Below are positions 4,900-34,439 of a stretch of DNA of 35,128 nucleotides, in pieces. Position 1 is the stretch's first letter, and each line of letters opens with the position of its first letter. The stretch covers positions 1-35,128 of the IMG/VR virus record IMGVR_UViG_3300044266_000112; one strand, given 5' to 3'. The DNA is from a virus. Lineage: Duplodnaviria; Caudoviricetes. Under the pieces are notes generated by a model, which was not told the DNA's origin, did no database searches, and saw nothing but the letters and a program-made list of their open reading frames with translations. A program made the translations under genes and the position numbers.

Positions 4900-4920
4900 T
4901 TTATTTATATATTTTACAGT
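4900..4920 (-). promoter_or_regulatory. T4-late-like TATAAATA box before portal-scaffold-capsid operon
   Basis: Minus strand ACTGTAAAATATATAAATAAA; core at 4909-4902, about 20 nt upstream of the portal ATG; near-identical context at 34439-34419. Confidence 0.65.
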
Positions 4921-4936
4921 TTAGCCTAGGATAACA

Positions 4937-6559
4937 TCATGTTACAGGGTTGAATGTTCGTTTCCATTCAACTTTATTAGCATCCTTGTTGGCTTTTATG
5001 GCATAGATTCGTTCTCTGGCTTCTGCCATTCGCTGTTGTGGACTGCGGTCATCATAGGGTTCTGACCATCCATTAAGGGCCCCAAGTAGAGCATAACGAG
5101 CACTATCAATACAATCATCAGGATCTGAGAAACGACCCTTTTCATCCACGAAATAATTCTTTGCTTCACGAAGAAACTCCACGCAGTTTTCATTTACATG
5201 TAGTGTGCCCAACTCTAACATTTGACGCATTACATTGACGCCAAATGATTTATTGTTTGTGACTTTGCCTTCACTGTCAGGTGGATTCATCGCAGGCTGA
5301 GGATGCACATTTAGATTGTAGTCTTCAAATAGTTGTCTAAGGCTTAGGGCACTCATTGTATAGCGACCTGCTGTGTTGGCATCACTGGGCAGAACAATAG
5401 GACAGCCATAGACTTCAGGACGCATTAGGTGATTGATCCAATTTACAGGGGCAGCTTCTTCAGTGCCCTTTACAACTATTTGGCTGTGCAGCCAAGCTTC
5501 TTGTTCCCTAGGGTTCCAATACAACAAACTGATAACGGTCTTATCTCTAACTAGGCCTAAGTCAAGTGCTATGATACGCTCAATGTTCATCATGCTACGG
5601 AAATCATATTCACCAGTCTTGTAAGTAGGCCAGTTTCTAATTTGGAATACTGCGCCCTGTCCCATAACTGGAATACCTGCAATACGGGCTTCACGCTCAT
5701 GTGGTAGGTAGTCGCGCTCTAATTGTCTCCTGGTTTCCGCTAATAGAAAAGGTTCTCCCCAAGGATCATATTCTGGAACATCCTCCCAACTTACGCGGAT
5801 GTGTTCATAACCATCTTCTTCATACCAGAACTTGCTTACTAGACCGTTTAGACCTTTCAAAGGCGTAAACGAACAAAGTACCTGTCCTTGTGTGGTGGCA
5901 GTTCTGGTTACCAGTTCTGAGAATACATCGTCTGGTGGCTGCTCATCAAAGACCACAAAGTCTAACTTGAAACCCTGTAGGTTACGAACTTCCTGCGTGT
6001 AGTTACCAAATAGCAAATAACTATTGGCACCGCTGGCATGACGGATTTCAACTCCTAGAACATTGGCACCATCACAGCGCATGGTATCCTGCACAATACA
6101 TTCGCGTGGAATAGCACCTGTTCCTACCTGTTCTCTAATTTTGATATCTTTGGTACCTATAAGTTCATCTTGTAGAACGCGAGCACATTGTTCCCAACCT
6201 TCACCTGCTACAAAGGCAGTCACAGGTTTATTGAAACGACGGCCCTCCCACCATTCTGGATAGCGTCCAGTTAGATGCATGGCAGTTTCAAAGCAGGTTG
6301 AAACAGTTTTACCAATACGGTTAGCGGCTAGGATACCGCGGCGTGGGTGATCACCAGTCTTAAAGAATGCTAGTTGATGCTCAAATGGACGAAAGTATTT
6401 GAGGTGGTTGAATTCCATATCGTCCCTAACTGATATAGCCCAGTCCTGAAATGCCAATTTGGCTTCAGTGGGCATCATCCACAGTGCATCAACGGTTTGG
6501 CCACTTTGATCACAGCACCAACGCACAGCACGGCGCATGAGAACATTTGAGTCAATCAT
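4937..6559 (-). CDS. terL: Terminase large subunit (P22-like)
   Basis: Walker A AANRIGKT, Walker B FVVFDEQP, coupling motif SFTP, RNase H-like nuclease ALDLG...DD.IDSARYA. Confidence 0.95.
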   Translation of the reverse strand: MIDSNVLMRRAVRWCCDQSGQTVDALWMMPTEAKLAFQDWAISVRDDMEFNHLKYFRPFEHQLAFFKTGDHPRRGILAANRIGKTVSTCFETAMHLTGRYPEWWEGRRFNKPVTAFVAGEGWEQCARVLQDELIGTKDIKIREQVGTGAIPRECIVQDTMRCDGANVLGVEIRHASGANSYLLFGNYTQEVRNLQGFKLDFVVFDEQPPDDVFSELVTRTATTQGQVLCSFTPLKGLNGLVSKFWYEEDGYEHIRVSWEDVPEYDPWGEPFLLAETRRQLERDYLPHEREARIAGIPVMGQGAVFQIRNWPTYKTGEYDFRSMMNIERIIALDLGLVRDKTVISLLYWNPREQEAWLHSQIVVKGTEEAAPVNWINHLMRPEVYGCPIVLPSDANTAGRYTMSALSLRQLFEDYNLNVHPQPAMNPPDSEGKVTNNKSFGVNVMRQMLELGTLHVNENCVEFLREAKNYFVDEKGRFSDPDDCIDSARYALLGALNGWSEPYDDRSPQQRMAEARERIYAIKANKDANKVEWKRTFNPVT

Positions 6560-6782
6560 TGACCTGCTCCAGGCGTTCTATGCGTGTGTGTAGGATTTTG
6601 TTTTGATTCTGTAGGCCTATGATGGCCGTGGTTAGATGTTTGGTCTGTGTGGCTACCATTTCTACAAGGTGGCTTAACTGCTTTAGGCGTTCCTGCAGTT
6701 CATCAATGCTGGCATCATGGCTCATGGTCTGAACCTGAAGTTGCTCCAGAATCTCCATAGGATCAAAGTTAGGGTTGAACAT
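6552..6782 (-). CDS. Hypothetical coiled-coil protein
   Basis: 76 aa with heptad pattern; overlaps both neighbours (translational coupling). Confidence 0.7.
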   Translation of the reverse strand: MFNPNFDPMEILEQLQVQTMSHDASIDELQERLKQLSHLVEMVATQTKHLTTAIIGLQNQNKILHTRIERLEQVND

Positions 6783-7056
6783 CGTTTTTTAATGAATGCC
6801 TAATTCGTTGAATATTAATCATTGCAGTGCTTAGATCAAGGATTTCATCAATGCTTAGTATCCAGGTATCAGGATTGGTTAAATCAACGCCTGGTTTTTT
6901 TTCTAACCCTAGATGTAATCTTTCAGTGATTAGGCGTTGAATGTGTTCTAGCTGTCCAGGAAACCTCTCCGCAAAGGCCTCGCGGTGTGCGCCGTTGACC
7001 TTTTGGAGAATGCGTGTATCCAAGACCTGGCGTTCAAAGTCTTTGGAAGAGCTCAT
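6769..7056 (-). CDS. Hypothetical protein
   Basis: 95 aa, starts 1 nt after the upstream stop. Confidence 0.7.
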   Translation of the reverse strand: MSSSKDFERQVLDTRILQKVNGAHREAFAERFPGQLEHIQRLITERLHLGLEKKPGVDLTNPDTWILSIDEILDLSTAMINIQRIRHSLKNDVQP

Positions 7057-7057
7057 A

Positions 7058-9018: not shown

Positions 9019-9453
9019 TTAGTCCTTGTTACCAACGCGATTGTATAGTTGGCGGTCTTGAATCTTGTCTGGGTTACCTTTGAAGTTTTGACCTGCACTT
9101 GGTGTCCAACTACGACGGCCGCTTTCAACTGGGTTAGCACTTGCGCCTGCTGTGGCTGGAGCACGACGAGGACGAGCGCCTACATCACTGATGTTGCCCT
9201 TACGGTTAGGCATCTGGCGGAACTGAACATCACGGCCATCATTCATGTGACCAGTGTGTTGATTAACCTGAATGCTGCTAGCACGAGCACGCTGACTGGA
9301 ACCGTTGTCTTGACCGTTAAAGCCAAGGCCTGTGTCACGCTGGTTGCTTGCGGGTGTGTTACCCATCTTTGGTAGGCCAGCATTCTTTTTCATGTCGTTG
9401 CCAGGCTTACGGTGAACTGTATCATTAGGGATACGATATTTTACATCACTCAT
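9019..9453 (-). CDS. Hypothetical basic, likely disordered protein
   Basis: 144 aa rich in R/N/G/P; AAAGGAA RBS. Confidence 0.7.
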
Positions 9454-9611
9454 TTCTTTTTTCCTTTAGTGGTGGTTGCTTTTTTGCCTTGAGCGGCACG
9501 CTTAGTGGCATATGCGATGGCCACCGCTTGAGCAGGTTTCTTCCCTGCTTTGATCTCAGTGGAAACATTCTTTTTGAATGCTTCTGGTGATTTGCTTTTA
9601 ATTAGAGGCAC
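9450..9611 (-). CDS. Small basic phage protein, 53 aa (not in ORF track)
   Basis: GTG start with AAGGA RBS; [53 protein letters not shown]; stop overlaps next ATG (ATGA). Confidence 0.85.
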
Positions 9612-9951
9612 TGTCTTCGTCCTTTTGTTTATTTATATTATTCAGTGATTTGAGTGCTTCTAAGAACGCTGTTTGCTTGGTGTCTGCTAGTGCGGAATTG
9701 TCCTCAACTTCAACATCCAACATTGTGGTGGCCACTTTGTCTAAAATGATCTTTTCGTAGGTATTGCGTAGTTTAGTGTCGCCAGCGTAGATGCTGTCGC
9801 GGTAACCTTCCATTAGGCTGATGGCAAAAGGCTTGCCCACAATGGCAGCACATTGGTCTAATAGATCTTTGGCCGTGAGTTTATTGCCAGTGCCTTTGGG
9901 ACGCCCAGCACCTGCTCTTGCTCCACCATGTTCTTTCTTTTCTTGTTCCAT
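9598..9951 (-). CDS. terS: Terminase small subunit-like protein
   Basis: N-terminal [13 protein letters not shown] motif typical of many small terminases; first gene of the late block. Confidence 0.6.
9630..9637 (-). promoter_or_regulatory. T4-late-like TATAAATA box
   Basis: Exact TATAAATA 18 nt upstream of the GTG at 9611, inside the 3' end of terS. Confidence 0.55.
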
Positions 9952-9977
9952 ACCTAAACTTGATTCCTATTCATGTT

Positions 9978-9985
9978 TATTTAGC
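9978..9985 (-). promoter_or_regulatory. GCTAAATA late-like box before terS
   Basis: CCGCTAAATA in the intergenic gap after a terminator; same 10-mer at 25265-25256. Confidence 0.55.
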
Positions 9986-10005
9986 GGTTTGGACAAAAGA
10001 GCCGT

Positions 10006-10027
10006 AAGAAAGCCCCAATGAAGGGGC
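10006..10027 (-). terminator. Rho-independent terminator
   Basis: GCCCC-TTCATT-GGGGC followed by TTTCTT. Confidence 0.6.
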
Positions 10028-10050
10028 ATAGTGTTTCTGCGTGGGGTCTA

Positions 10051-10290
10051 TTATGCTGTTACAATTTTAGATAGTTTATCTACAACTGCTTGGACCTGTT
10101 TATTATCTACCGTATCAGGAATCAAATATTCTTGTAATTGATCACCATCGTTCCAAATGCGTCCTGCAATTTTTAACTCATCCCAGAACGGAGTTTGTTC
10201 CCAAATCTTGTCAATCTCTTTAAATCGTTTTTGGTAAGTGTCGTCATCAATTAACACCTGAATCCAACCAATCTTCTTAACTGCTAACAT
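10051..10290 (-). CDS. Hypothetical protein (start revised to ATG 10290)
   Basis: TAAGGAG RBS before MLAVKK; flanked by its own promoter and terminator. Confidence 0.75.
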   Translation of the reverse strand: MLAVKKIGWIQVLIDDDTYQKRFKEIDKIWEQTPFWDELKIAGRIWNDGDQLQEYLIPDTVDNKQVQAVVDKLSKIVTA

Positions 10291-10323
10291 AGGCTTCTCC
10301 TTAATGTTTGTTGCCATATGTTA

Positions 10324-10352
10324 ATTGTATATGGTATTTAGCATTTTGTCAA
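10324..10352 (-). promoter_or_regulatory. Sigma70 promoter with embedded GCTAAATA
   Basis: TTGACA-AAATGCTAAATACCATA (17 nt)-TACAAT. Confidence 0.85.
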
Positions 10353-10361
10353 CCTGTTTGG

Positions 10362-10565
10362 TTAGACATCCACAGGATCCTGCCATTCACCTTCTATGAG
10401 CCTAATACCTAGTAAGCCAGCCAGTACATGTGCATGACTTCTGGGTTCTATGATAATACCCGCACGGTTGAAATCATATTCTGCGCCCTGTTGTTTGAGT
10501 AAGCAGTTCATCTGCTCTGTGGTCAAGTCAATGAGGTCCGTGCAGTGCGAGTACAAGAATTTCAT
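10362..10565 (-). CDS. Hypothetical protein
   Basis: 67 aa, ATGA overlap with upstream gene. Confidence 0.65.
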   Translation of the reverse strand: MKFLYSHCTDLIDLTTEQMNCLLKQQGAEYDFNRAGIIIEPRSHAHVLAGLLGIRLIEGEWQDPVDV

Positions 10566-10969
10566 TTTTGTGGTTTCCGTGGGCGACCTACTGGCCGTTT
10601 GACCTGAACCTGTTCTGGCTGCTTGCGTGGGCGTCCTATACGATTACCATAGATGCTGTGCGTGTCTCCTGATAATCTATCTTTAACTGTGATATAATTG
10701 TTTACGGGTTTGCGTAGTGCATAAGGATTTGACTGTGAGCTGGCATCAAAGACAAAGAATTTACAGTTTCTGCACTTGTGTTTTACATGCTCATAGTCTG
10801 TACCTATTCTATGAACTGCACATTCTATCACTTGGTTGACCACTGGTTCTGAGCAGTAGCCACAGATCTTTGCCTCAGTGTTCTTTACCAAGACATCACG
10901 ATCCAGTTTGGCACTGAAGCGTAGCAGTCCTGAAGTACGCCGTTTGAATTCTTCTTTGTTCATAGGCAT
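10562..10969 (-). CDS. Zn-ribbon protein with two AT-hook-like motifs (start uncertain: 10969 or 10963)
   Basis: CGYC...CRNC pairs; C-terminal RIGRPRK and KRPVGRPRK. Confidence 0.7.
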   Translation of the reverse strand: MPMNKEEFKRRTSGLLRFSAKLDRDVLVKNTEAKICGYCSEPVVNQVIECAVHRIGTDYEHVKHKCRNCKFFVFDASSQSNPYALRKPVNNYITVKDRLSGDTHSIYGNRIGRPRKQPEQVQVKRPVGRPRKPQK

Positions 10970-11077
10970 ATTTAAGTGCTGGGGGAATTTGGCTTTATGG
11001 TTGTGAGACGAAACGGACAAAAGTCATTCACTGGCATCCTTCCCTGGACCGTTGACTCCAGCACAGGGTATTTACCC

Positions 11078-11108
11078 AAAAAAAAGCACCCTGTTCTGGG
11101 GTGCTTTG
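11078..11108 (-). terminator. Rho-independent terminator of the ATPase operon
   Basis: AAAGCACCC-CAGAACA-GGGTGCTTT running into a T8 tract. Confidence 0.85.
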
Positions 11109-11151
11109 AGGTTAGCCAGGGTCTCTTATAATTGCCTCTGCCTGGACAGGG

Positions 11152-11742
11152 TTATTCTATTGCCTTTCCTGTGAGCATAATGTATTCTTCTTGTGTAATG
11201 TAATAAAAGCCTGAATCAGGTTTTTTTACAAGGCTCATTAGGTGCCTACGAGCATTAGTGCCTCTAATAGGAATATAGTGATCGCTGGCTTGATTAAGAC
11301 TTTCAAATACACCTTCTGGAGTTATGATAGGTTTACAACTACGCAGACGGTTAGCCTTAGCAGTATTTGCCTGCCAATTAGGATCTTGTGACAAATCCTT
11401 CATTGCTTTTGCTTTATTAGCACGCCAGGTATCACCTCTATTTTTTATCATCGTTTGATGCTTTTTTTGCCAATCAGGATTTTGTGTCAATAATTCCATA
11501 GCAGCCTTATGGCTATCTTGCCATTTCTGTGTGGCAGTGGTTTGTCTAACTGAGCGAGCATTTTTCTCACGCCATGCTGGATCTGCTGTTCTTTTAGCAA
11601 TACTTAATTTAAAGGTATTGCTAGAATTGCGTTCCTTTATACCAGCAACATGGTTCCAATTTGTTCCAAATAATTTCTCATCGCTTAGACCAGGCAACTC
11701 AATGTTACCCCATTGTTCTGTATTTGTATTAGTATTAGACAT
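11152..11742 (-). CDS. Homing-endonuclease-derived DNA-binding protein (helical repeats + NUMOD1-like HTH), paralogue A
   Basis: Repeated DP.W(R/Q) basic helices; C-terminal KPIITPEGVFESLNQASDHY...GFYYI; no GIY-YIG or HNH motif seen. Confidence 0.6.
   Translation of the reverse strand: MSNTNTNTEQWGNIELPGLSDEKLFGTNWNHVAGIKERNSSNTFKLSIAKRTADPAWREKNARSVRQTTATQKWQDSHKAAMELLTQNPDWQKKHQTMIKNRGDTWRANKAKAMKDLSQDPNWQANTAKANRLRSCKPIITPEGVFESLNQASDHYIPIRGTNARRHLMSLVKKPDSGFYYITQEEYIMLTGKAIE
11656..11742 (-). repeat. ~85-nt direct repeat, copy 1 (shared gene 5' end)
   Basis: Encodes MSNTNTNTEQWGNIELPGLSDEKLFGTNW; matches 12104-12184. Confidence 0.9.
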
Positions 11743-12184
11743 AATAAAATTTGTCCTTCTTACTAGTTTTGAGCCAATATTGAACGGTACCTACAGCGAC
11801 ATCATAATATCTCGCCACTGCTGTCAAACTTTCATGCGTGATATTCTTTTCAACATCAAAAATTGGAGTTGCTCGCGACATAATGTTTTTAAGATTTTTT
11901 TCTTTAACATCAGGACGCTGTGCCACTTCCTTATTAATGCGAGTTTTTTTGGCTAATGTTTCTTCATTGGCCCAGGCTCGTTTCATACCTTCCACTCTGT
12001 TATTCCGTGATTGGGGATTAGCCCAGGTCTTAAGATTACTTTCTGTTGAATGCCGCCTGAATGAATCTCGCTGGCCAACTTCTCTCATTATCGCTAATTT
12101 TTCCCAATTGGTATTGAATAACTTCTCATCGCTTAGACCAGGTAACTCAATATTGCCCCATTGTTCTGTATTTGTATTAGACAT
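11735..12184 (-). CDS. Homing-endonuclease-derived DNA-binding protein (NUMOD1-like HTH), paralogue B (start revised)
   Basis: GGAG RBS; C-terminal HESLTAVARYYDVAVGTVQYWLK...KFYYV HTH pattern. Confidence 0.6.
   Translation of the reverse strand: MSNTNTEQWGNIELPGLSDEKLFNTNWEKLAIMREVGQRDSFRRHSTESNLKTWANPQSRNNRVEGMKRAWANEETLAKKTRINKEVAQRPDVKEKNLKNIMSRATPIFDVEKNITHESLTAVARYYDVAVGTVQYWLKTSKKDKFYYV
12104..12184 (-). repeat. ~85-nt direct repeat, copy 2
   Basis: Encodes MSNTNTEQWGNIELPGLSDEKLFNTNW; differences are mostly synonymous. Confidence 0.9.
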
Positions 12185-12305
12185 CATAATCTCCAATGTA
12201 GACTCTGCGTTTAATTGCTTCAACATAATAAAAAGCCATTTTTATATTATTTCTTTTAATCGCGTATTTCAATGAATCAAATAATTGTTGTTCTACGATA
12301 TTCAT
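12177..12305 (-). CDS. Small hypothetical protein, 42 aa (not in ORF track)
   Basis: MNIVEQQLFDSLKYAIKRNNIKMAFYYVEAIKRRVYIGDYDV; fills the gap, starting 3 nt after the ATPase stop and overlapping the next start. Confidence 0.5.
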   Translation of the reverse strand: MNIVEQQLFDSLKYAIKRNNIKMAFYYVEAIKRRVYIGDYDV

Positions 12306-12308
12306 AGA

Positions 12309-13121
12309 TTATTTCCAAAGTTGTTGAAGCATGGTTTGACGCAGTTTAGGATCTGCATTGTGATGAAGTGTATCTGCGATTTTGATAGCAATACGCGGAG
12401 TGACTTCAACCAAACTACGATAGTTTCTGCCCATATAATCAGCGGCTAGTTCAATGATATCTTCTGGATAGCCGCCTTCAAACTCTTGACAGTTTGTGCC
12501 CAACATATCCATGTTATCAACTAAATGCATGGTATAACTGAATTTCTGTTCATCTGAAAAGTTACATTCAGCAAAGTTGAAACGACTGAAGATAGCATTC
12601 TTCCATTGCTTAATTGCTTTGGCAATGTCATCTTTACGATCGTTAGTAATCCAAATCAGTGCGCCTTCAAACTTAAAATTATGAGGAACATTATATTCTT
12701 CCATAAGCGGATTTTTGCGAGCAGTTTCCCAACTGACTTCACGATTTTGGCCTAGTTCAGCCGCACCCAATAGCATTGGAACAATCTGTCGCTTTTCATT
12801 GTGGTGAATGATATCACAGTCATCCAAAATAACGATACGATGTTTGGCACGGTTAAGATAAAGTTTGACATACAAACTGGCCGCAGTAATTTTGCCGCCT
12901 TTGATGTATTCAACATTTTTTGTGTGCCCTGTATCTCGTAGGGCCTTTTTAACAGTATAGGTCTTGCCTGTACCAGCATCGCCTGAAATGATTAGGCCAT
13001 TAATGGCTGAATTTGGATTTTGAACAAACGAAACAGTTTGTGCGTAGATGCCGTCAAAAGTATCTTGGACTTCTTGGGCAATTGGATTGATGCGAATTTT
13101 TTTCGCGATTGCGAGTGACAT
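12309..13121 (-). CDS. AAA+/P-loop ATPase (start revised to ATG 13121)
   Basis: Walker A GDAGTGKT, Walker B IVILDDCD, sensor-1 IWITN, Arg-finger-like AIFSRF; AAGGAG RBS. Confidence 0.88.
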   Translation of the reverse strand: MSLAIAKKIRINPIAQEVQDTFDGIYAQTVSFVQNPNSAINGLIISGDAGTGKTYTVKKALRDTGHTKNVEYIKGGKITAASLYVKLYLNRAKHRIVILDDCDIIHHNEKRQIVPMLLGAAELGQNREVSWETARKNPLMEEYNVPHNFKFEGALIWITNDRKDDIAKAIKQWKNAIFSRFNFAECNFSDEQKFSYTMHLVDNMDMLGTNCQEFEGGYPEDIIELAADYMGRNYRSLVEVTPRIAIKIADTLHHNADPKLRQTMLQQLWK

Positions 13122-13210
13122 AAAATCTCCTTGGAGTTGATGAATAAAATTATTGACGCATATCTTGATATACATCTCAATGAACAGCACTATTGCTAGT
13201 TCATGTTATT

Positions 13211-13239
13211 ATTATATAGTGTATTTAGCAGGTTGTCAA
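13211..13239 (-). promoter_or_regulatory. Perfect-consensus sigma70 promoter with embedded GCTAAATA
   Basis: TTGACA-ACCTGCTAAATACACTA (17 nt)-TATAAT. Confidence 0.92.
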
Positions 13240-13276
13240 CAGTCAGTTTTACCAAAATTCTCGTTAACCTTAGCAT

Positions 13277-13308
13277 TTGACAGGCCTCTTTGATCTATGT
13301 TATAAATA
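13277..13308 (+). promoter_or_regulatory. Sigma70 promoter overlapping a TATAAATA box; drives the candidate ncRNA
   Basis: TTGACA-18 nt-TATAAA with extended -10 TG; TATAAATA at 13301-13308. Confidence 0.75.
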
Positions 13309-13312
13309 ATAC

Positions 13313-13508: not shown

Positions 13509-13513
13509 ATCTC

Positions 13514-13552
13514 TTGACATTTTACAGGGTTTTCTGTTATTATCGCTAAATA
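13514..13552 (+). promoter_or_regulatory. Sigma70-like promoter followed by GCTAAATA, upstream of the polymerase-like gene
   Basis: TTGACA-18 nt-TATTAT (TG extended), then GCTAAATA at 13545-13552. Confidence 0.7.
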
Positions 13553-13598
13553 AAAGGTGAGACAATGTTTGCCGCGTGTCTTAAGAGAATTATGTTAA

Positions 13599-25236: not shown

Positions 25237-25255
25237 CTCAATACAATCTTATGCA

Positions 25256-25265: not shown

Positions 25266-25277
25266 AAATACAAGAAC

Positions 25278-26189
25278 TTACTGTTTAATCACCTGTGCCG
25301 TCAAACTTCTTAGTCCTACAGTCTGAACATCAGGCACAACATCGCCCGTAATAGATGACCAAACAACTTCAGCGATATACCAATAGTAGCCAAAGTTAGG
25401 TTGATCAATTACAGTGGTAAAAATATTTTGTCCACAATTTACTGTACCCGTTCCAGGACTAACTGTAAATGAATTTGTCTGTTGACTCAGCGTTTTATCA
25501 AAACCAAACAGGTAATCATTTGCACCTGGTCTAGTGGTATCTAAAAATGCACTGTATCTATTAATTTGTACAGTTACTGAGAATGAACTAGCTGTAGTAC
25601 AACTATATCCACTGGTTAATGCCAGTTGACTTGAAATAAAGACCTGTTCAGTTGGACCTGTAACAGTCACGCGAGCATTAGCATCAGTAGATACTGGAGA
25701 TCCAGTCACTGTATAATCATTATTGATGTATAATGATCCATATGTAGTAACAGGAGCTAGAGAAGTTATAGGATTATTAAGAGCTAATTGTGTAACAACA
25801 CTGGTAGTAGAACAAGATATTACATATCCATCTTTGCCCTGATAAAAATCAGGAACCCAAGTGTCATCACCAATTGGTCTTTGTCCAACAGCAAATGGTG
25901 GTGAAGCCTGTGGTGAAGTAAAATTCCATTGAATAGTCACCGTTGATGTTGCTGTATTATTATCTAATAGACTAACTGAACTAACAGGAACAGGCGCCAC
26001 ATACCAAAGAGGAGCCTGTGTTGTAGTTGATACAGCGGTTGTAAATGGTTGACGGAATGTTCCACTTAGCCAAGCAGGTTCGTAGGCACTAAATCCACTA
26101 AAATTTTGGCCAAGGCCGCTAGGACCTGATGCCAAATAGTTAACTGCTTCAAATAATCCTTCTTGGCTGACTATTGGAAACTGACTCAT
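25278..26189 (-). CDS. Beta-rich tail structural protein
   Basis: S/T/V-rich; TAATG coupling to the nozzle gene. Confidence 0.6.
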   Translation of the reverse strand: MSQFPIVSQEGLFEAVNYLASGPSGLGQNFSGFSAYEPAWLSGTFRQPFTTAVSTTTQAPLWYVAPVPVSSVSLLDNNTATSTVTIQWNFTSPQASPPFAVGQRPIGDDTWVPDFYQGKDGYVISCSTTSVVTQLALNNPITSLAPVTTYGSLYINNDYTVTGSPVSTDANARVTVTGPTEQVFISSQLALTSGYSCTTASSFSVTVQINRYSAFLDTTRPGANDYLFGFDKTLSQQTNSFTVSPGTGTVNCGQNIFTTVIDQPNFGYYWYIAEVVWSSITGDVVPDVQTVGLRSLTAQVIKQ

Positions 26190-28159
26190 TATCTATCTTC
26201 CTCAACTGGAGCAATCTGCCATGTCATAGATGAACAATGCCAAATGTTTGTGGTAGTTGAGTTACTCAATGCCACTGTGTTTACACGAAATGCATTTTGA
26301 TCAATCTGAACCCAAGGATCATGTTTAGGATTGCCATTGGCATCTACAAAGGTGGTTACAGCAGTTGATACACTGGCTGGACTGCCCACACTATTGGCAC
26401 CTTCTATGGTTACACTAATTGTGGCTGTGCTATCATATACTTGAATATTGGCGCCTTTGTTTAGTTCAGCACCTAGGTTAACCACTTCAGGTAGCACACG
26501 ATGCACCATAACTTTGGCTGTGTATTTGTCTAAAATCTTAATATTATCTCTACGGAATTCACTGCTGATAGCCACAGGCGTGCTAGTTCCAGGACTGCCA
26601 TCAACACAATTCAAGAATTGGAATCCTTGATCTTTTTGTAGTAGAGTTTGATTCAAACATCCACGAGCATAGACCACTGTTCTTGTGCCAGTGTTAAAAT
26701 AACCAGTTTGAGGATTATATATTGGTGCTTCTGTTGAGAATGTAGCACTATCAACATCGCGAGGTGCATTCCAGCAGTCAATATCGTAACGGTATGACAA
26801 CATTTTGTTGGGCACACCATCATCTACTGCCTTGTCCTTGCTGGTATAATAAATTTCAATTTGGCTTTTTTGTGTGTTTGTTTCTAAAAACACACGATCA
26901 TGATAGCGTGGATCTAGATTATCATAGAACCAATTCTTAACACGCTGGTTACCAATGGCACTGAAATCATTACCATCAAATACCCAAATGTCACGAGCAT
27001 CTACTCCATAGACTAATCTATCTGTGTTAGCCCAACAGTTTGAACTTAATAATCCACGACCTTGGTTAAACTGACGCACGCCAAGAATAGGTGCTTGTGT
27101 GGTAGCATAGTTCATTGGGGTGAATACCACTGTGTCCCAATATGAACACAAGAAGAATAAGCCGTTACAAGGAAAGGCATCAATGGCTCCTCCTCGTAGG
27201 GGAACTTCTAATTGGTTGGCCACATTTATTACAGTTGGTGTCCATGTTTGTGGTGCTTGGTTAAGACCAAAGGCCTGCGACCATTGCACCGTTACAGGAT
27301 AGACCTGTGTGCTAGTTGATCCAACAGGACTGGCTGTTAGGTTACCAGCAACTAATATTGATCCCACATTCTGTGTATTGAACTGGCGCATAAATTTGGC
27401 ATAGACACTGGTCCAATTGGGATTATAATTCCAGGTATATTGTGGAGCTACTGTTCCGCCACTTTGATATGGACCTACAGTGGTATCATAATAGGTAACA
27501 GTTGTGGTATCACAGGCAGCAACTCTAAATGCACTACTACTGCTATAGGTTGCTGGAGTAGTACCACTTATTAAAATGTATCCACCAACTTGAAATGGTG
27601 CAGTAGTAAATGTTGTGTCTGTGCTGAATGTAATAACTCGTTGTGTGGCTACATTAATAGGATCAGGTTGAATATCACTAATCTTGATAGGCTGTTGATT
27701 ACTATACATAACCAATGGCTGAACAACACCCAGCTGATCATCTGGCCAGAACATTGGAGGATTGTGTTCATCATTTAAGAATAACACTGTGCCGTTCCAA
27801 CTTTCAGTGATATTGGTAGCTTGATTATAGCCTGTGAAATCACCTACACTGGGAGTAATGTCATAGGGTGGATTACCATCATCTGTCATTGCATACCATT
27901 TACCAGGACTTCCATCTATGGCATCAGTGGCCACAACAAACCAAAAGCGTCCATCAGCACGAAACCCACCTGTGACAAATGTTGGTTTGCCTGGAATGTA
28001 GTAGAGTAATTCTTGATCACCAGCTACTGAGCGTATACCGCGAACATCTGTTTCCACATTCTGTCCAGCATTGTATTCATTGGCCCCCAGCGCCGCGCTG
28101 GGCACATCAGGGCTGAATGTCATCTTGGCTAAGGGTAGTTTAACTACTGATATGGTCAT
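26189..28159 (-). CDS. Tail nozzle / hub protein (P22 gp10 or T7 gp12 analogue)
   Basis: 656 aa, beta-propeller-like pattern (VQWS..., IWVFDGNDF..IGNQRVK.WF, LSYRYDIDCW); synteny. Confidence 0.7.
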   Translation of the reverse strand: MTISVVKLPLAKMTFSPDVPSAALGANEYNAGQNVETDVRGIRSVAGDQELLYYIPGKPTFVTGGFRADGRFWFVVATDAIDGSPGKWYAMTDDGNPPYDITPSVGDFTGYNQATNITESWNGTVLFLNDEHNPPMFWPDDQLGVVQPLVMYSNQQPIKISDIQPDPINVATQRVITFSTDTTFTTAPFQVGGYILISGTTPATYSSSSAFRVAACDTTTVTYYDTTVGPYQSGGTVAPQYTWNYNPNWTSVYAKFMRQFNTQNVGSILVAGNLTASPVGSTSTQVYPVTVQWSQAFGLNQAPQTWTPTVINVANQLEVPLRGGAIDAFPCNGLFFLCSYWDTVVFTPMNYATTQAPILGVRQFNQGRGLLSSNCWANTDRLVYGVDARDIWVFDGNDFSAIGNQRVKNWFYDNLDPRYHDRVFLETNTQKSQIEIYYTSKDKAVDDGVPNKMLSYRYDIDCWNAPRDVDSATFSTEAPIYNPQTGYFNTGTRTVVYARGCLNQTLLQKDQGFQFLNCVDGSPGTSTPVAISSEFRRDNIKILDKYTAKVMVHRVLPEVVNLGAELNKGANIQVYDSTATISVTIEGANSVGSPASVSTAVTTFVDANGNPKHDPWVQIDQNAFRVNTVALSNSTTTNIWHCSSMTWQIAPVEEDR

Positions 28160-28168
28160 CGTGTTTCC

Positions 28169-31100
28169 TTATACGGCAGTATTGTCATGGACATAACTCC
28201 AACGACTGTTTGTAGTATCCCAGAATGCTATCATACCATTTGGATTACCACCACCAGCACTATCACTGATAGCAATTTGTGCTCCAATCTGTCCAGTCTT
28301 TGTTCTGGCCACTGCGGCTGTATAACTTGGCACCACAGGAATAGCAGTAAAGACCGCTGTGGCAGTGGTAATAGAAACAGCATTGAATGTACCTGACTTA
28401 TCATTAAACTGGTGAGCATCACTGTTATAGCTATTAGTACGATCATTTAAGATAGCACGGGTGGCCAGTGTGGTTGTGCCAGTGTTCACAGTTTGGAATA
28501 TCATTTGTGTACCACGAGCACTGGCGCCTGCGTTTTCTACCATGCTCAAGTTAATGGCGCCAACTGTTTGCCCGTTACCAGAGCCGTTAGCCGCTATTTG
28601 TGCGTTACCTGAAACAGAAAATACTGTGTCGCCACTGACCAGCGCATCTCTGCGTCCTGAATAGGCATTGCGACGACCAGTTACAAAGTTTAAGATGTTG
28701 GTGCCAGTAATTGTGGCATTGTCTGGCGCTGTGTCCTGTTGTGTAACACCAAATACCTGTATTTGGTTATTGTTGAAGGCAAAGTTTGTGCGTCCACTTC
28801 CTGTGCCAAAACTGCCAACACCGCCCGCAGGAACCAGAGTTGGAATTGAGGCATCTAGTACGCCCTGTCCAACTGCCAAGGTTAGAATAGGAGGACTGTT
28901 GGTAGTGGTATTACCTGTTGTCCAACTGGTCTGCACAAATATTCTACGGCTGGTGCTGTTTAATTGAACAGCAGGAGGTTGAATACGCAGACCAATGTTA
29001 GTACCAGCGTTGGTAGTTGTTGAACCGTTGTTAGAAAATGTTTCTGCGGCTGTGACAAATATGCTGGCTGGTGGTAAAGTTGCAATACCTGAGGTGCTTT
29101 GGTTGAACAACCAGTTAGTGCCATCATAACCACTGAATTGTAGGGCACCAATGGTATCACCACTGCCTGTTGCAGTGGGTGCGGCTGAAGTTCCACGACT
29201 ACCTTCTAGCACCAATTGTCCGCTTCCAGCAGTGGCAGCGGTTCCACCTGGTATGTTTTGACCATAACCTCTGATGTTGACCTGTGGGCGAATACCTGAA
29301 GTATAGTTGCTGACGATCATGGCCACTGACTGTGTGCTACTCTGTGTGATTAGAGCTTGACCGTTTACATCTAAAGGATATCCACCAGCACTGATGACCT
29401 GTGTGACCTTGGTACCAGTTGTTATGGCCAAGCCACTGAATGTGACTGTGCTTGTGGTAAACAAGGCCTGGTTGGTTACTGTGCTTAGATTAAATGCGCC
29501 AGGAATGGTAGGCAGATTGTTTAGATCATTGTAGTTGTTGGTAAAGCCAACTAGACTTAGACCTGTGACCTGACTGGTTGAAATACTGCCAGTGGCATCA
29601 CTTAACTTGCCAGTGAATCCAATTGTTGAAAGACCAGTAACGCTGGCAGTTGTAATAGATCCAGTGCCATCACTTAATTTGCCTGTCCAGGCAATGGTCT
29701 TCAATCCAACAACACTGCTGGTTGAAATGCTGGCCACAGTTCCAGTCCAGGCTGTATACTGTGTGGTGCCATCAGCAAAGTTGATCTGTGTAGAATTTAC
29801 AGCACTGATGTAGGCATTTAGATAGCTGTTGCCAGAAGCACCAATAGTGCTGCTAGCACCATTTGTGCTTACAATGTTGCCAATGTGTGTTAGACCAGTG
29901 GTATCTAAGGTCAATGGTGTTGAATATGTGGTTGTGGAACCTATGTTCAATACCTGGAATGCAATCTTACCACCTGCTGCCGTATCAGTGAAGTTTTCAG
30001 CAGCCAAGAAGCTGATGTTAGCACTACCGCTGGTAACAAACTGTGTTGCTCCATAACCATGTCCTTGAACACGCAATAGTGTTTCGCCTGATAGCACAGC
30101 AGTTGGACTTGCGGCTGTCCCACGAGCACGACGACCACTCCAAATGTTTAGTGTGGCGCTACCAAAATTATCTGTGACCAGGCGTGTGTTGACATTGTTT
30201 TGTCCAATGGCCCAATAGGCATAGCCTGCGGCATGTGGTAAAGGATAACTTGCACTACCGCTTTCATTTACCAATACACTACTGTGTGTGGCGTTTGGTG
30301 ATGTGGTAATGGTTAGGCTGTTTCCATCTAGTGTGGCCAAACTACCTGCATAGGTCCATGTGCTGGCTGCGAGTGCGCCATTTAAGGTCAGACCTGCAAA
30401 GGTTGGCGAATCTGTGGTGTTTAGACTTTGATCAAATGGGTTTACTGCGGGTGCTGGGCTATAGGTAATGGCACCAGTGCCTGCATTGTAGTATAACACA
30501 TTGGTTGTGGTAGCAGAACTTAGCGCAGTGGCTACTAGATTTGCACCTTGAACTGTGGCACCTGCTGTGACATTGCCCGTAGCACTTAGACTAGCACCCG
30601 TGACAGCACCCGCGGCTGTAACTGTGCCCGTAGCTGTAAAATTGGCACCAGTTACATTTCCAACTGCTGTTAGATTTGCACCAGCACGAACATCTAGTCC
30701 TGCATAGATGTTGTTTGTGGCAGTAATGTAGGTATCAGCTTTTAAGAATGTGCCAGCATGAATGCTAGCCGCACTGTAGATGAAGCCAGTTGATTGAATT
30801 GTACCACTGGCAGTAAAATCATTGCCTGTGATGTCACCAGTGGCTGTGATGTTTCCACCAGCTGTGATGTTGGTGTTGGCAGCAACTGTGCTGTTACTGA
30901 CCACGCTGCCTGCGGTTAGTGCTCCGCCAACTAGGCCTGTGCCAGTTACATATAGGTTGCGTTCTGCAACAAGATCTTTACCAGCTGTGACATTATTAAA
31001 TGCGTATAGATTGTTTTGACTGTTGATATCGCCCTGTGCATCAATGTCAACGCTGGCATTAATACTGCGTGTTTGAATACCAGTTTGATCAATTATGGTG

Positions 31101-32257
31101 GTTCTAATTGTGGCTGTTGTGCCTGTATTGATTACACCAAACTCAATATAACCGCCATTGGCAGAAGTATTGAAATCTTCAGCAGCTCTAAATGCAATAT
31201 AACCACTGGCACTGCTGGTAAATGCTGTGCCATTGTAACCAAATGCATTAAGACGATTTAGAACATCATCGCGCTTGACTGCGCCTGGAGCATTTAGACT
31301 TCCACGAGCACGACGGCCTGTGAATATTGTGCTCATTTGATCAATGCTGTCTGTGCCAGTGTTACTGTATGTTTCAACAACCACACGACCCTTGCTGTTA
31401 GGCTTGTTTAGACCAACTAGAACAGCATCACCAGTGCCCACAATGGAAGGAATATTTGTGGAACTGGTTGGATTAATGAATAATGCACCTCTTGAACCGC
31501 TTTGTGGTGCTTGGATAGCCAGCCCTTGACTGGTAATGCTAACGCTGGTGTTTAAGGTTGTGGTTACAGTATTAACAGTGCTGATGTTAACACCACCACC
31601 TTTCCAGGCATCATTGAATCGTTCTTGTGCAATAAGATCAATCTGTGCAGAATTAACGCTGCCAAATTGTGTAGCTCCGTAACCTTGTGCGCCAATGCGT
31701 AATAACACATTGCCAGTGGTAACAAAGGTAGGTGCAGTGGCTGTGCCATTGGCTGCACGGGCTTGAATACGAGCAACACCTGTGCCATAATTGTCAATTA
31801 GGTTTACAGTATCTTGATTATTGGCGCTCAATGACCAAACAGCAACGCCATTAACTCCAGGTGTGGCAAAACTGGTGGCTGTGTTTTGATTAACAAATAA
31901 AGTGGCATGACCGCTGTCAGTGGCAGTATTTTTTACCACAACACCATTATTGGTAAACTGAGCAGTTGTGCCCAAGGCGCTAATGGTAAATGTTTGAGTT
32001 GATACCAGTGTGTTGCTCAGTGGAAATACTAGACTACCATCAGTGTTAATCTGTAGTTTGTAACTGCCTGCACTAATACTGCTGGTGGACAAATAACCGC
32101 CACTGGTTCCAGTGCCTCCAGTGATTAAAATACCACCTGGAGTAGCACCATCACCAACCCAAAGTTGATGTAGGTCTGTGGTCCATACTGGTTCGCCTTG
32201 AGCAAATGTTACTACTGCTCGTTGGCCGTCTGTTCCTTTTCTAAACTGTAATGGCAT
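28169..32257 (-). CDS. Long tail fibre / receptor-binding protein
   Basis: N-terminal LQFRKGT...FAQGEP...TD...LWVGDGATPGG anchor motif; T/G/S/A/N-rich with internal repeats. Confidence 0.85.
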   Translation of the reverse strand: MPLQFRKGTDGQRAVVTFAQGEPVWTTDLHQLWVGDGATPGGILITGGTGTSGGYLSTSSISAGSYKLQINTDGSLVFPLSNTLVSTQTFTISALGTTAQFTNNGVVVKNTATDSGHATLFVNQNTATSFATPGVNGVAVWSLSANNQDTVNLIDNYGTGVARIQARAANGTATAPTFVTTGNVLLRIGAQGYGATQFGSVNSAQIDLIAQERFNDAWKGGGVNISTVNTVTTTLNTSVSITSQGLAIQAPQSGSRGALFINPTSSTNIPSIVGTGDAVLVGLNKPNSKGRVVVETYSNTGTDSIDQMSTIFTGRRARGSLNAPGAVKRDDVLNRLNAFGYNGTAFTSSASGYIAFRAAEDFNTSANGGYIEFGVINTGTTATIRTTIIDQTGIQTRSINASVDIDAQGDINSQNNLYAFNNVTAGKDLVAERNLYVTGTGLVGGALTAGSVVSNSTVAANTNITAGGNITATGDITGNDFTASGTIQSTGFIYSAASIHAGTFLKADTYITATNNIYAGLDVRAGANLTAVGNVTGANFTATGTVTAAGAVTGASLSATGNVTAGATVQGANLVATALSSATTTNVLYYNAGTGAITYSPAPAVNPFDQSLNTTDSPTFAGLTLNGALAASTWTYAGSLATLDGNSLTITTSPNATHSSVLVNESGSASYPLPHAAGYAYWAIGQNNVNTRLVTDNFGSATLNIWSGRRARGTAASPTAVLSGETLLRVQGHGYGATQFVTSGSANISFLAAENFTDTAAGGKIAFQVLNIGSTTTYSTPLTLDTTGLTHIGNIVSTNGASSTIGASGNSYLNAYISAVNSTQINFADGTTQYTAWTGTVASISTSSVVGLKTIAWTGKLSDGTGSITTASVTGLSTIGFTGKLSDATGSISTSQVTGLSLVGFTNNYNDLNNLPTIPGAFNLSTVTNQALFTTSTVTFSGLAITTGTKVTQVISAGGYPLDVNGQALITQSSTQSVAMIVSNYTSGIRPQVNIRGYGQNIPGGTAATAGSGQLVLEGSRGTSAAPTATGSGDTIGALQFSGYDGTNWLFNQSTSGIATLPPASIFVTAAETFSNNGSTTTNAGTNIGLRIQPPAVQLNSTSRRIFVQTSWTTGNTTTNSPPILTLAVGQGVLDASIPTLVPAGGVGSFGTGSGRTNFAFNNNQIQVFGVTQQDTAPDNATITGTNILNFVTGRRNAYSGRRDALVSGDTVFSVSGNAQIAANGSGNGQTVGAINLSMVENAGASARGTQMIFQTVNTGTTTLATRAILNDRTNSYNSDAHQFNDKSGTFNAVSITTATAVFTAIPVVPSYTAAVARTKTGQIGAQIAISDSAGGGNPNGMIAFWDTTNSRWSYVHDNTAV

Positions 32258-32267
32258 TATATTGTCC

Positions 32268-33044
32268 TTATATTACGATTGGGCCCATATCTAGGGTGAA
32301 GCTTACAGGTACTACGATTGTGCCAAAATCAAATACCTGGTTAGCGGCTGTGCCTGTGGCTGTAGTCCAATACAGCGTACCAGTGCCATCATCTACCAGT
32401 GTCTCACCTGCTGTTCCATGCTGTGCAGGAAACTTATAATTTGGAAATTGTGTTGTTCCGTCTGTGTTGAATGACCATGCGCTACTGGTTGTAGCATATC
32501 TGCTGGTATTAACATGAACACCAGTGTCATCAACTATTAATTCATTATTGCCTGTATTGTTAACTAGGGTGACTGCGCCATTAGGAGGTGCTAGCCAATA
32601 CTGATCACTAAATTGTGCTGTAGTTGTGCCAGTGTTTAGACTGCCAGTGGGTAGGCGCATGACGCCATCGCTGCCCATTGTCCACTCATGTCCATTGGCA
32701 ATGAAGTTAAACTCTTGATTGACAGCATTAGTTGTGGTGTTGCCTGAAAATATCCAATTGCCTAACTGTGCAGAAGTTGCTGTTGAGAATTGAAATACGC
32801 TGGCAGCAATAGTTGAACTGTTGGTGGCTGGATCTAAGAAGAACTGAACATTACCATTGTTGTCAAATAATTGTATCAACTGTTCAGCATTGGTAGGCAA
32901 TGGACTATAGTAACCACCATACAGACCCTGTAGGTTAGTTGAGTAGGTGGTTGCACTGAAGGTGCTGGTGCTACCAACATAGAGTGTGACTACATTAGTT
33001 GAGGTTACTGTATAGGTTGATGTATTACCATAGAGGCTGGGCAT
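32268..33044 (-). CDS. Short tail fibre / collar-like structural protein
   Basis: T/S/G-rich; FPAQHGTAGETLVDDGTGTLYW and FDFGTI fibre-type motifs. Confidence 0.6.
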   Translation of the reverse strand: MPSLYGNTSTYTVTSTNVVTLYVGSTSTFSATTYSTNLQGLYGGYYSPLPTNAEQLIQLFDNNGNVQFFLDPATNSSTIAASVFQFSTATSAQLGNWIFSGNTTTNAVNQEFNFIANGHEWTMGSDGVMRLPTGSLNTGTTTAQFSDQYWLAPPNGAVTLVNNTGNNELIVDDTGVHVNTSRYATTSSAWSFNTDGTTQFPNYKFPAQHGTAGETLVDDGTGTLYWTTATGTAANQVFDFGTIVVPVSFTLDMGPIVI

Positions 33045-33053
33045 TACGATTCC

Positions 33054-33791
33054 TTAGCGAGCAGTATATCTGCGATCCTTGCGTGGCTGGAAGATTGAAG
33101 TTATTCTTGTGTGTCCACCTGACCACTTGCCTTTGGCATTTTGGTCCTCAATGATGTTCATTGATTCTTCAAACTTGGCCTTGTATATTTGTGCGTCTTC
33201 TGGACTCTTACGCTTAACATAGTAGCAGTGAAGAGTACTATAAACATAGCCTTCTGGAAAACTCTGTAGCACACCATTGGTTTGAACTACATTGCCATTG
33301 CTATCTACTGAGAATAGATAGGGCCACGCACGATAGTAATACAAGTTGATTATGTCACCTTGGCTTAGACCAGGTAGGAACTTATATTTTTGTCCTACTT
33401 CTGAGAACTTACCGCGATATACTGAAGGTATATTGATAGGCTTAAGATATAGTGCTTCTACCAAACTTTCTGTTATGATATCACGATCACCAATGCGATC
33501 ATAAACAATCCAGGGACCTAATTGACTATAGTTACTGGAGCCTTGAACGCCACCCATCTTGAAAAACAAGATAGGTTTAAGCATGTCACCTGGAATAGGT
33601 ATCATGCCAAATTCATCAGCAGTGGCCTGGAACTGTGGATTGAATGGATCACTACGCTGAATAGGTAGTTCCAGGTTACGCATCATCATTTCGCCCATAA
33701 AGATACATTCTTTGATCTCTTGGTCGTTGCTGCTGCCTGTAAATTGTTTGACAAATGCAACTAGTTCATCTGCATTGGCTATTTGGCTCAT
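33054..33791 (-). CDS. Head-tail adaptor protein (putative)
   Basis: Helical N-terminus, IPGDMLK, LYYYR, FPEGYVYSTL pattern of podovirus adaptors; second gene after the capsid. Confidence 0.65.
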   Translation of the reverse strand: MSQIANADELVAFVKQFTGSSNDQEIKECIFMGEMMMRNLELPIQRSDPFNPQFQATADEFGMIPIPGDMLKPILFFKMGGVQGSSNYSQLGPWIVYDRIGDRDIITESLVEALYLKPINIPSVYRGKFSEVGQKYKFLPGLSQGDIINLYYYRAWPYLFSVDSNGNVVQTNGVLQSFPEGYVYSTLHCYYVKRKSPEDAQIYKAKFEESMNIIEDQNAKGKWSGGHTRITSIFQPRKDRRYTAR

Positions 33792-34399
33792 AGATTATGT
33801 CCTTGGAAGAATTTCTTTTCACCTGTCTTGGCAGGATAGGGCACATCAATGGGAATTGGTAACTTACCACCTGGATAGCAGACAAACTGTGGATATTCTT
33901 GTTGTACCACACGATAAAACTGTGCCTTAAGTGTTCTATCACGCTTGATTGTGCTCCAACGCATACCACCAAAGTATTCATCACTGATACGCTGTTCAAC
34001 TACTGAGGGTAAATCCATCCAACGATGTGCTAGTTTACCATCTTCTGTTAATGGTGCTAATGGATCTGGAACTCCTGCTTCAGCAGCCTCACGATAACGC
34101 TTACAACGCTCAACGACTGCTTGGTAATTTAATTGTTCACGACGAATATAGAACTTACCATCTTCACGACCTGTGGTGGTAATGATGTTACCACTCTTAT
34201 TTGTGGCTGTGCGTGTCCAATCACCCTTCATTGAGCGATATAGATCATTGTTGCGTAGTAATGCATCAGCAAGACCGTTGTGCCCATCAATCATTCCACC
34301 ATGATCTCTGCGTGTAAAATCCAGGTTTGTTTCTGGATCTGTGTCATCTAACATTGATGCATTGGGATTCTTAAGGCTGTATTCTTCTTCTGGCGTCAT
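33788..34399 (-). CDS. Hypothetical protein (post-capsid)
   Basis: 203 aa, AAAGGAA RBS, ATGA overlap with the adaptor gene. Confidence 0.75.
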   Translation of the reverse strand: MTPEEEYSLKNPNASMLDDTDPETNLDFTRRDHGGMIDGHNGLADALLRNNDLYRSMKGDWTRTATNKSGNIITTTGREDGKFYIRREQLNYQAVVERCKRYREAAEAGVPDPLAPLTEDGKLAHRWMDLPSVVEQRISDEYFGGMRWSTIKRDRTLKAQFYRVVQQEYPQFVCYPGGKLPIPIDVPYPAKTGEKKFFQGHNL

Positions 34400-34418
34400 T
34401 CGCGTTGATTCCTTTGCT

Positions 34419-34439
34419 TTTATTTATATAATTTACAGT
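34419..34439 (-). promoter_or_regulatory. T4-late-like TATAAATA box heading the tail operon
   Basis: ACTGTAAATTATATAAATAAA, 20/21 identical to the box at 4920-4900; follows the capsid terminator. Confidence 0.68.

Follow-up and report, generated by a model that had tools for sequence, protein, structure and literature searches.

The late genes of satellite P4 are turned on by the Ogr protein of phage P2. In phages of the T4 family the late promoters are read by gp55 together with gp33 and gp45; the T4 box spans −13 to −6 relative to the transcription start, and Aeh1 uses the variant CTAAATA (PMC1524935, PMC5259590). CBB and GAP32 possess the late motif ATAAATA, and in the published description of CBB a gp55-like sigma factor is recorded, gp33 and gp45 not having been detected (PMC5259590). 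The virophages Sputnik, Mavirus and Guarani are described as carrying the late-promoter motif of their helper upstream of many genes, including those for replication (PMC6723459). Among bacterial viruses, MiniFlayer and MulchRoom are reported as Streptomyces satellite phages with their own capsid and packaging genes, the former having no integrase and needing a virulent helper (PMC10690885). Helper late promoters on virophages, particle-forming satellites of lytic phages (MiniFlayer) and helper-activated late genes (P4) are hence already known; a phage complete with head and tail but using the late sigma factor of another was not found in the literature searched, most subscription papers and supplements being outside its scope. 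Here we describe boxes of the form [A/C]TAAATA in the window, by which we mean the whole 35,128-nucleotide (nt) stretch of IMG/VR record IMGVR_UViG_3300044266_000112, a podovirus-type phage genome in which profile searches reveal SU10-type capsid and portal, terminase, tail and putative ejection genes.

The reading that we prefer, at a probability of roughly 60%, is that this genome belongs to a virion-complete, non-integrating parasite whose late genes are likely switched on by the gp55-like sigma factor of a large phage, T4-like or jumbo, in the same cell; such phages would then be the bacterial equivalent of virophages. Borrowed late transcription explains the data best because the box is conserved by position, is absent from a box-free sister, is common to unrelated siphoviruses and gp55-encoding phages, and has no reader that we could find in these genomes. 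An earlier sequence-only reading of the window had proposed a satellite of a T4-like helper; its borrowed late transcription remains the best account, and the dependence on a helper is a proposal.

The word TATAAATA had been noted at 4902, 9630, 23149 and 34421 on the minus strand and at 13301 on the plus strand, and GCTAAATA at 9978, 10335, 13222, 13545, 14969 and 25256; every one of these positions is correct. A sixth TATAAATA site had been overlooked at 2454, inside the open reading frame (ORF) 2167–2514. Each word thus occurs six times, where 1.59 and 1.37 occurrences, respectively, are expected, and none of 100 shuffles reached six in either case. The boxes at the four structural sites end 20, 18, 17 and 21 nt before the start codon, the two near-identical boxes that share 20 of 21 nt are those at 4902 and 34421, and each of the 15 TAAATA sites is on the strand of its local gene block. 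When dinucleotide shuffles of the upstream windows themselves served as the control, the box was enriched over this AT-rich background as well (9 of 52 upstream windows; shuffle mean 3.3, p=0.006). The core word put forward earlier is corrected here to [A/C]TAAATA.

Six of the boxes, all on the minus strand, precede virion, packaging or acetyltransferase-type genes. The TATAAATA box at 4902–4909 stands before the portal–115-aa–scaffold–capsid operon, that at 9630–9637 before the operon of a small protein and TerL, within the 3′-end of the putative TerS gene, that at 23149–23156 before the putative ejection-protein operon, and that at 34421–34428 before the neck/tail operon, which begins with the gene after the capsid. 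The GCTAAATA boxes at 9978–9985 and 25256–25263 precede the putative terminase small subunit (TerS; 9598–9951) and the GNAT gene (24772–25230). The distinct upstream regions of orthologous genes were compared in IMG/VR loci. The box persists amid drifting flanks before the portal gene (55/59), the gene after the capsid (17/19) and the small gene (27/29), and it is likewise kept before TerS (8/8), the ejection gene (6/6) and the GNAT gene (3/3). Genes internal to operons give the opposite picture: TerL 0/70, the scaffold 1/29, a 245-aa protein 0/31 and a 273-aa protein 0/20. Metagenome loci, which come in part from the same contigs, agree (portal 54/56, TerL 0/73). The 115-aa gene had been intended as a further internal control; since a box lies upstream of it in 27 of 45 relatives, it is unusable as a negative control and counts as a further site. 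Upstream enrichment over shuffled DNA was found in all 10 podovirus genomes, that is, the window and nine relatives (p 0.001–0.016).

The consensus comprises a free position, A or C (62% and 36%), the core TAAATA and a final A, and thereby spans the T4, Aeh1 and CBB variants of the late box. That the virion-gene boxes have no −35 element, another point of the sequence-only reading, was borne out: TTGAC occurs within 60 nt at 3 of 59 portal regions and 2 of 19 regions before the gene after the capsid, and at none of those before the ejection gene (0/6), the small gene (0/29) and TerS (0/8). The distance between box and start codon falls into two classes, with 15 boxes at 4–8 nt, 105 at 17–31 nt and none at 9–16 nt. 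Two classes are what one would expect by T4 geometry, because a transcription start some 5–6 nt behind the box would give either leaderless messages or messages with a ribosome site. Taken together, these data indicate that the [A/C]TAAATA boxes are real signals. An archaeal TATA box was also considered and rejected, as it would place the ribosome site ahead of the transcription start and the genome has sigma-70 promoters.

Besides virion operons, the boxes head operons of the replication slot and of accessory genes. On the minus strand, a box at 11067–11074 (core 11069–11074) lies behind a terminator-like hairpin and before ORF 10562–11020; on the plus strand, the TATAAATA box at 13301–13308 lies in a divergent control region, 291 nt before a polymerase gene. 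Four GCTAAATA boxes are found inside or beside promoters of the type TTGACA-17/18-TATAAT with 11 or 12 of 12 positions matched, a feature missed earlier. The box at 10335–10342 (minus strand) lies in the spacer of TTGACA-17-TACAAT (10352–10324), that at 13222–13229 (minus strand) is nested in a 12/12 promoter (13239–13211) before the AAA ATPase operon, that at 13545–13552 (plus strand) follows directly on the promoter 13514–13543 before the polymerase gene, and that at 14969–14976 (plus strand), near an additional TAAATA at 14948, is nested in the promoter 14958–14986 before the operon of a 144-aa ORF, GNAT and GroES. These four are the sole such sigma-70 matches in 9400–18400, and all of them head non-virion operons. 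Since the early module thus has strong host sigma-70 promoters, the phage can probably start some expression alone.

Such dual promoters occur in the early modules of the window, of relatives G001, G003, G004 and G016, and also of siphoviruses, and they would suit a facultative use of the box. In that case read-through from sigma-70 promoters, together with the replication proteins of the host, would suffice for the phage to complete its cycle alone, and the sole role of the boxes would be to maintain expression in a cell where a large phage has shut off transcription by sigma-70. The polymerase that some members encode would fit this too. The virion operons speak against it, having a box and no −35 element; moreover, in the window the tail/ejection block and the rightward early operon are oriented against each other, transcription from the leftward early promoters would have to pass terminator-like hairpins to reach the head genes, and a lysin was not detected. 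We regard facultative use as the least probable of the alternatives considered here.

If the phage read its own boxes, a reader should be encoded in it. The gp55 family was detected in none of five clade records and none of four siphoviruses, the positive control G008 scoring E 6e-64; the late-sigma family of jumbo phages was found in 0 of 26 small-phage records and sigma70_r2 (PF04542) in 0 of five clade records. When 47 window ORFs (up to 420 aa) were compared as profiles with gp55, the CBB sigma factor and gp33, no match exceeded 7.5% probability; the control, gp55 against the CBB sigma factor, reached 94.9%, these profiles being thin. Neither gp55, sigma-70 region 2 nor gp33 was detected in the window, in keeping with the sequence-only reading.

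The most suggestive candidate was a 144-aa helical protein (15006–15440, plus strand) behind a dual promoter, which has a Pro-rich tether and a C-terminal FxxLF tail. It belongs to a wide family (213 clusters) and its model is of good confidence (pLDDT 89.5). A fold search returned generic helical bundles (best Z 5.8), with a sigma-28 chain at rank 35 (Z 4.3); its matches in BFVD are uncharacterised phage proteins only, and the ESM Atlas held no match for it or for a 102-aa ORF. The gene is present in 6 of 22 records, is missing from the complete, box-bearing genomes G016, G021 and G027, and is absent from all five siphovirus records. We rejected it as a hidden sigma factor as it is not sigma-like in the fold search and is dispensable, a missing fold match not being decisive alone. 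The F-x-x-L-F tail is found in 61 of 153 homologues of this family and also on unrelated accessory proteins (L076:6292–7122, L079:13628–14905, L083:1250–1615, L123:4045–4455). It looks like a docking peptide; a role as a motif for the helper clamp found no support, as none of 247 ORFs of jumbo-phage fragments carries FxxLF and the CBB polymerase ends otherwise.

A 332-aa ORF (13599–14597) was considered as a hidden RNA polymerase and rejected; it has a PolA/TV-Pol fold, and T7 RNA polymerase is absent among the 50 PDB entries listed for it. Since the gene occurs in only 2 of 10 genomes, it is not the box reader of the clade.

These searches bear on the view that the phage is autonomous and that one of its small proteins, acting as an activator or in the manner of a sigma factor, has escaped recognition and enables host RNA polymerase to use the box. 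In favour of this view, the capsid and portal belong to the SU10/phiEco32 type, cultured members of which are described as making their own late sigma factor (PMC8948821). The cultured lytic phage rV5 is another precedent, with a T4-late-like motif and, according to its description, no homologues of gp55, gp33 or gp45 (PMC3606486). For several small ORFs that occur across the clade no fold is known (the 102-aa ORF is in 9 of 10 genomes), and the early module has its strong sigma-70 promoters. Against this, no ORF resembles gp55, the CBB sigma factor, gp33 or sigma70_r2, the best candidate is dispensable, boxes also stand before replication-slot and accessory genes, no lysin was found among the scanned genome proteins, and the box-bearing podoviruses and siphoviruses have no family universally in common. 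An own activator is in our view unlikely, though it leads the alternatives.

The last point rests on a comparison with other small phages. The nearest annotated relative, MW202484 (TerL 50% identity), is sister to 13 clade sequences in a FastTree phylogeny of TerL (SH-like support 99); no box precedes any of its 77 ORFs, and it is annotated with SSB, ERF, Cro, RusA and a chitinase-type lysin. A second set comprises small phages that share the AAA ATPase gene, the virion genes of which are unrelated to those of the window and are of siphovirus type where the tail region is seen. Their boxes are strand-biased (19 versus 4 in the complete G011, 16 versus 1 in G014). As no gene family is common to all the podoviruses and siphoviruses, we argue for a reader outside these genomes. 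G014, a 34-kb siphovirus, also encodes polyphosphate kinase 2 (PF03976; L126:17326–18075).

The exact nested promoter pattern was encountered at 12 IMG/VR loci, two from this clade and 10 from T4-like phages. Five of the latter lie before gp32 in a gp33–gp59–gp32 region and five come from one T4-like phage; gp55 is present on four of five nested-pattern contigs tested, and all four tested contigs of that T4-like phage were positive. In these freshwater T4-like phages (L085–L096) the late box thus sits inside the spacer of a sigma-70 promoter, for example before gp32.

A reader outside the genome could also be the host. In this view a sigma factor or promoter preference of the host reads TAAATA and a second phage is not needed; a single host group would then account for both the word and the leaderless spacing in unrelated small phages and jumbo phages. 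The early promoters of the phage are canonical sigma-70 promoters, however. The sigma-70 −10 element ends in a conserved T, which the box does not have. In addition, the word is, in the phages for which it has been described, read by or ascribed to a phage sigma factor (PMC1524935, PMC5259590), and the missing lysin and SSB would be left unexplained. A host reader therefore seems improbable to us, slightly more so than an own activator.

With a large phage as the preferred source of the sigma factor, the question becomes which phage. The 318-aa gene of clade member G002 matches fragments of approximately 350-kb phages that are collinear with CBB. These CBB-like freshwater jumbo fragments share the 318-aa gene (46–49% identity) and a holin-like gene with clade members, and they carry the same box in both spacing classes (23 and 27 of 60). 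The short spacing is found in 0 of 25 cases in CBB stretches and 2 of 13 in G008. Many late boxes of the freshwater CBB-like jumbo phages (L300–L307, corresponding to G032 and G033; L298) lie 4–5 nt before the start codon and predict leaderless messages. Of 15 sample numbers with the CBB-like jumbo type, six also hold clade contigs, the figure for other phages being 0 of 45. We tentatively propose a CBB/Rak2-like freshwater jumbo phage as the leading helper candidate, at least as likely as T4 proper.

We infer every step of the following cycle from the boxes and their conservation, together with the dual promoters and the genes present. Host sigma-70 RNA polymerase would at first transcribe the early module only (AAA ATPase, TV-Pol-like polymerase, 144-aa protein, GNAT, GroES), which is perhaps sufficient to keep the phage DNA for a while. 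A large phage in the same cell would then make its late sigma factor, whereupon the boxes would be read and the genes for copying and for the particle come on together. The small phage's own terminase would package its DNA into its own particle, and release might follow through the cell-wall enzyme of the helper, perhaps with the aid of the phage's holin-like protein. Borrowed replication and lysis, as suggested in the sequence-only reading, fit only in part: helicase, SSB and endolysin were not found, but the genome has a TV-Pol-like polymerase and a holin-like ORF.

A number of observations weigh against a borrowed late sigma factor or against its proposed source. The box stands at only about half of the called transcription-unit starts (8 of 15 in the window), the box-free control is a single genome (MW202484), and among the siphoviruses enrichment is significant in two of four, the other two giving p values of 0.18 and 0.11. 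Habitat and study both confound the co-occurrence count, and it was a clade gene that led to the CBB-like jumbo type in the first place. Gene sharing with these jumbo phages is not specific, as they also match the lysin of box-free MW202484 at 40–50%. A late-sigma gene was seen in 0 of 6 and 0 of 11 records of the jumbo fragments, which do not cover that gene, and the sigma factor of the freshwater jumbo phages is for this reason inferred from CBB. As rV5 has such a motif, a motif without gp55 does not prove dependence. Finally, the strong sigma-70 promoters and the polymerase allow some independent activity, and the 102-aa ORF is one of many small ORFs to which no fold could be given.

A broader reading extends to all of the box-bearing small phages: tailed phages of 26–39 kb, podoviruses as well as siphoviruses, might together form a large guild of polyphyletic origin that does not integrate and is obligately parasitic on T4-like and jumbo phages, each member making an entire virion but having its replication and morphogenesis rewired to the late sigma factor of the helper. 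We hold this with more reserve, at slightly less than even odds. If so, bacteria would have true virophages of their own, which are common in fresh water and have hitherto passed for ordinary phages.

The IMG/VR record is classed as linear and 98% complete. The ends of the window overlap by 89 nt (84 identical) within the capsid gene, by which the circle closes, and seven relatives with direct terminal repeats measure 32.8–38.8 kb. In a gene-by-gene comparison with five relatives, four of them complete, gene order was largely collinear; on this ground, and because of an even contig depth near 20 in run X1, a chimeric assembly was rejected. Both of the two listed runs holding the record are freshwater metagenomes, and no RNA run is among them. 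IMG/VR has 568 stretches encoding a relative of the window terminase, and the best 80 of 490 metagenome matches are all on contigs of at most 38,992 bp. Contigs G018 (54 kb) and G023 (50 kb), with two terminase–portal blocks each, were judged over-long assemblies and were for that reason left out of the genome counts. No integrated copy or prophage was seen among bacterial genome contigs searched with portal or TerL patterns. Gene calls by script were made with a simple purpose-made ORF caller, and some starts are wrong.

The 5′ part of the SU10-type major capsid protein gene (PF17236) occupies 1–952 on the minus strand as exons 952–907 and 643–1 and runs on across the circular join, and the 3′ part, identified by profile searches, lies at 34517–35128 (minus strand), its end overlapping the window start. 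Between the exons is a group I intron of 263 nt without an ORF (644–906, minus strand; RF00028, 59 bits). Spliced and read across the join, the capsid protein has 403 residues, of which 386 are identical to the uninterrupted capsid of G001. The intron-less joint 643–907 is present on a contig in run X1, and relatives carry the intron-less allele. The intron has the characteristics of group I, namely a U at the 5′ splice site, a terminal G and a frame restored on removal; a search for its source gave generic 67–77% matches in cultured phages only.

The putative scaffold, the 115-aa protein, the SU10-type portal and TerL lie at 983–6559 on the minus strand, portal and TerL being identified by profile searches and the scaffold by position; the SU10-type capsid and portal families were recognized through matches to PF17236 and PF23899. 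Putative ejection proteins, GNAT, tail nozzle and structural proteins, tail fibres and an adaptor occupy 18758–34399 (minus strand), with profile support for 26189–28159, 28169–32257, 33054–33791 and the GNAT gene, the rest being assigned from position and conservation. In the 858-aa putative ejection protein (19823–22399), the N-terminal portion appears lysozyme-like by eye; Pfam, NCBIfam and a PDB sequence search with that part gave no match. The sequence-only reading had recognized no sigma factor, clamp, helicase, SSB, integrase or endolysin, and profile searches of the window proteins found none either (for integrase, by PHROG, Pfam and NCBIfam). Its accessory genes stand as regards GroES, the AAA ATPase and the group I intron; two genes called NUMOD-like (11152–12226) have no Pfam NUMOD match.

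The AAA ATPase (12309–13121, minus strand) is of the T4 NrdC.10 family and shares 72–87% identity with genes of small siphoviruses. Together with a gene starting with a conserved W-G-N-I-E-L-P-G-like stretch it forms a cassette that moves between podoviruses and siphoviruses (window 11152–13121; L109–L119). The 332-aa ORF on the plus strand encodes a stand-alone polymerase of the PolA superfamily, a predicted primase-polymerase. It has 66 homologues including itself, and its model (pLDDT 94.5) matches T7 and PolI DNA polymerases and virophage primase-polymerases, the best including those of Zamilon and Qinghai Lake virophage. The gene is also found in one of four siphoviruses. TV-Pol is described as having a PolA palm with two aspartates, a β-hairpin arginine, an RxxxK motif and a D5-like helicase partner (PMC2579912). 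Across the 66 homologues R118 (in a predicted hairpin), D145 and H298-D299-G300 are invariant; the RxxxK fingers motif is incomplete, with K196 invariant and residue 192, a Leu in the window, not conserved, and there is no fused or adjacent D5-like helicase, the nearby ATPase being NrdC.10-like. The product is classed as TV-Pol-like and not as a TV-Pol member. No Pfam or PHROG family matches it, and it carries an additional domain at its N terminus. In other members the polymerase slot is filled by unrelated, uncharacterized genes (G001 23237–24489, G016 1647–2420, G021 15837–17185, G027 26556–27248), which are possibly new replication initiators.

Further along the plus strand, 15765–17169 encodes a GNAT-like 181-aa protein, a 98-aa ORF, GroES and the 102-aa ORF; on the minus strand follow a holin-like 80-aa ORF (18062–18304), with weak XhlA/hemolysin matches and homologues in the jumbo fragments, and a Dps/ferritin-like protein (18304–18756). 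All 10 podovirus genomes have, besides recognizable virion and packaging genes, the families of the GNAT-like protein, GroES, Dps, the 273-aa protein and four small proteins. GroES (16605–16871) and Dps do not occur in box-free MW202484, and a superoxide dismutase is present in some clade members. A search for the donor of GroES gave one weak match.

Should the preferred reading be correct, a common family that looks like ordinary complete phages would be a parasite of jumbo phages, and the way such genomes are counted in viromes would change. In sequence data its members could be told by the presence of a six-base word and the lack of a sigma factor, which would provide a search rule for hidden hyperparasites; the claim is testable with one sigma factor and one promoter. 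A 2026 review, in which MiniFlayer figures as the satellite that encodes a capsid, considers it unclear whether satellites are more numerous in large phages (PMC13359090).

In comparison with known systems, the window shares its capsid and portal families with the kuraviruses SU10, phiEco32 and 7-11; these are about twice as large (SU10 77 kb, the clade 32–39 kb) (PMC8948821, PMC4281155), and phiEco32 and 7-11 are described as encoding their own late sigma factor and using other promoter words (PMC8948821), whereas no such factor was found in the clade. The boxes resemble T4-type late promoters in the invariant TAAATA core, the lack of a −35 element at virion genes, the position before late genes and a spacing that would fit a start about 5–6 nt behind the box. 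They differ in allowing A or C immediately before the core and any base one position further upstream, and in that replication and accessory operons are also headed by them; unlike the T4 family, the window genome has no detected gp55, gp33 or gp45. As in P4, late genes are proposed to be under a transcription factor of the helper, and as in the capsid-forming phage-inducible chromosomal islands (cf-PICIs) head and packaging genes are its own (PMC10690885). P4, PICIs and cf-PICIs, however, integrate and borrow capsid or tail, while the window has no detected integrase, has its own tail-fibre and tail structural genes and appears not to take any structural part from a helper. Like MiniFlayer it encodes capsid, portal and terminase and has no detected integrase; unlike MiniFlayer and MulchRoom, which have no primases, some clade members carry a polymerase, and the podovirus tail and ejection module of the window appears to be complete. 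In the main text of the MiniFlayer paper neither "promoter" nor "sigma" occurs, and a shared promoter is not described there (PMC10690885). The window differs from the virophages in being a tailed bacterial phage with an HK97-type SU10 capsid, in that the borrowed item would be a sigma factor and not a viral factory, in the absence of a detected integrase, and in that its dependence on a helper is proposed. With them it shares a particle of its own, a small genome, a late motif of the helper type and a TV-Pol-like polymerase.

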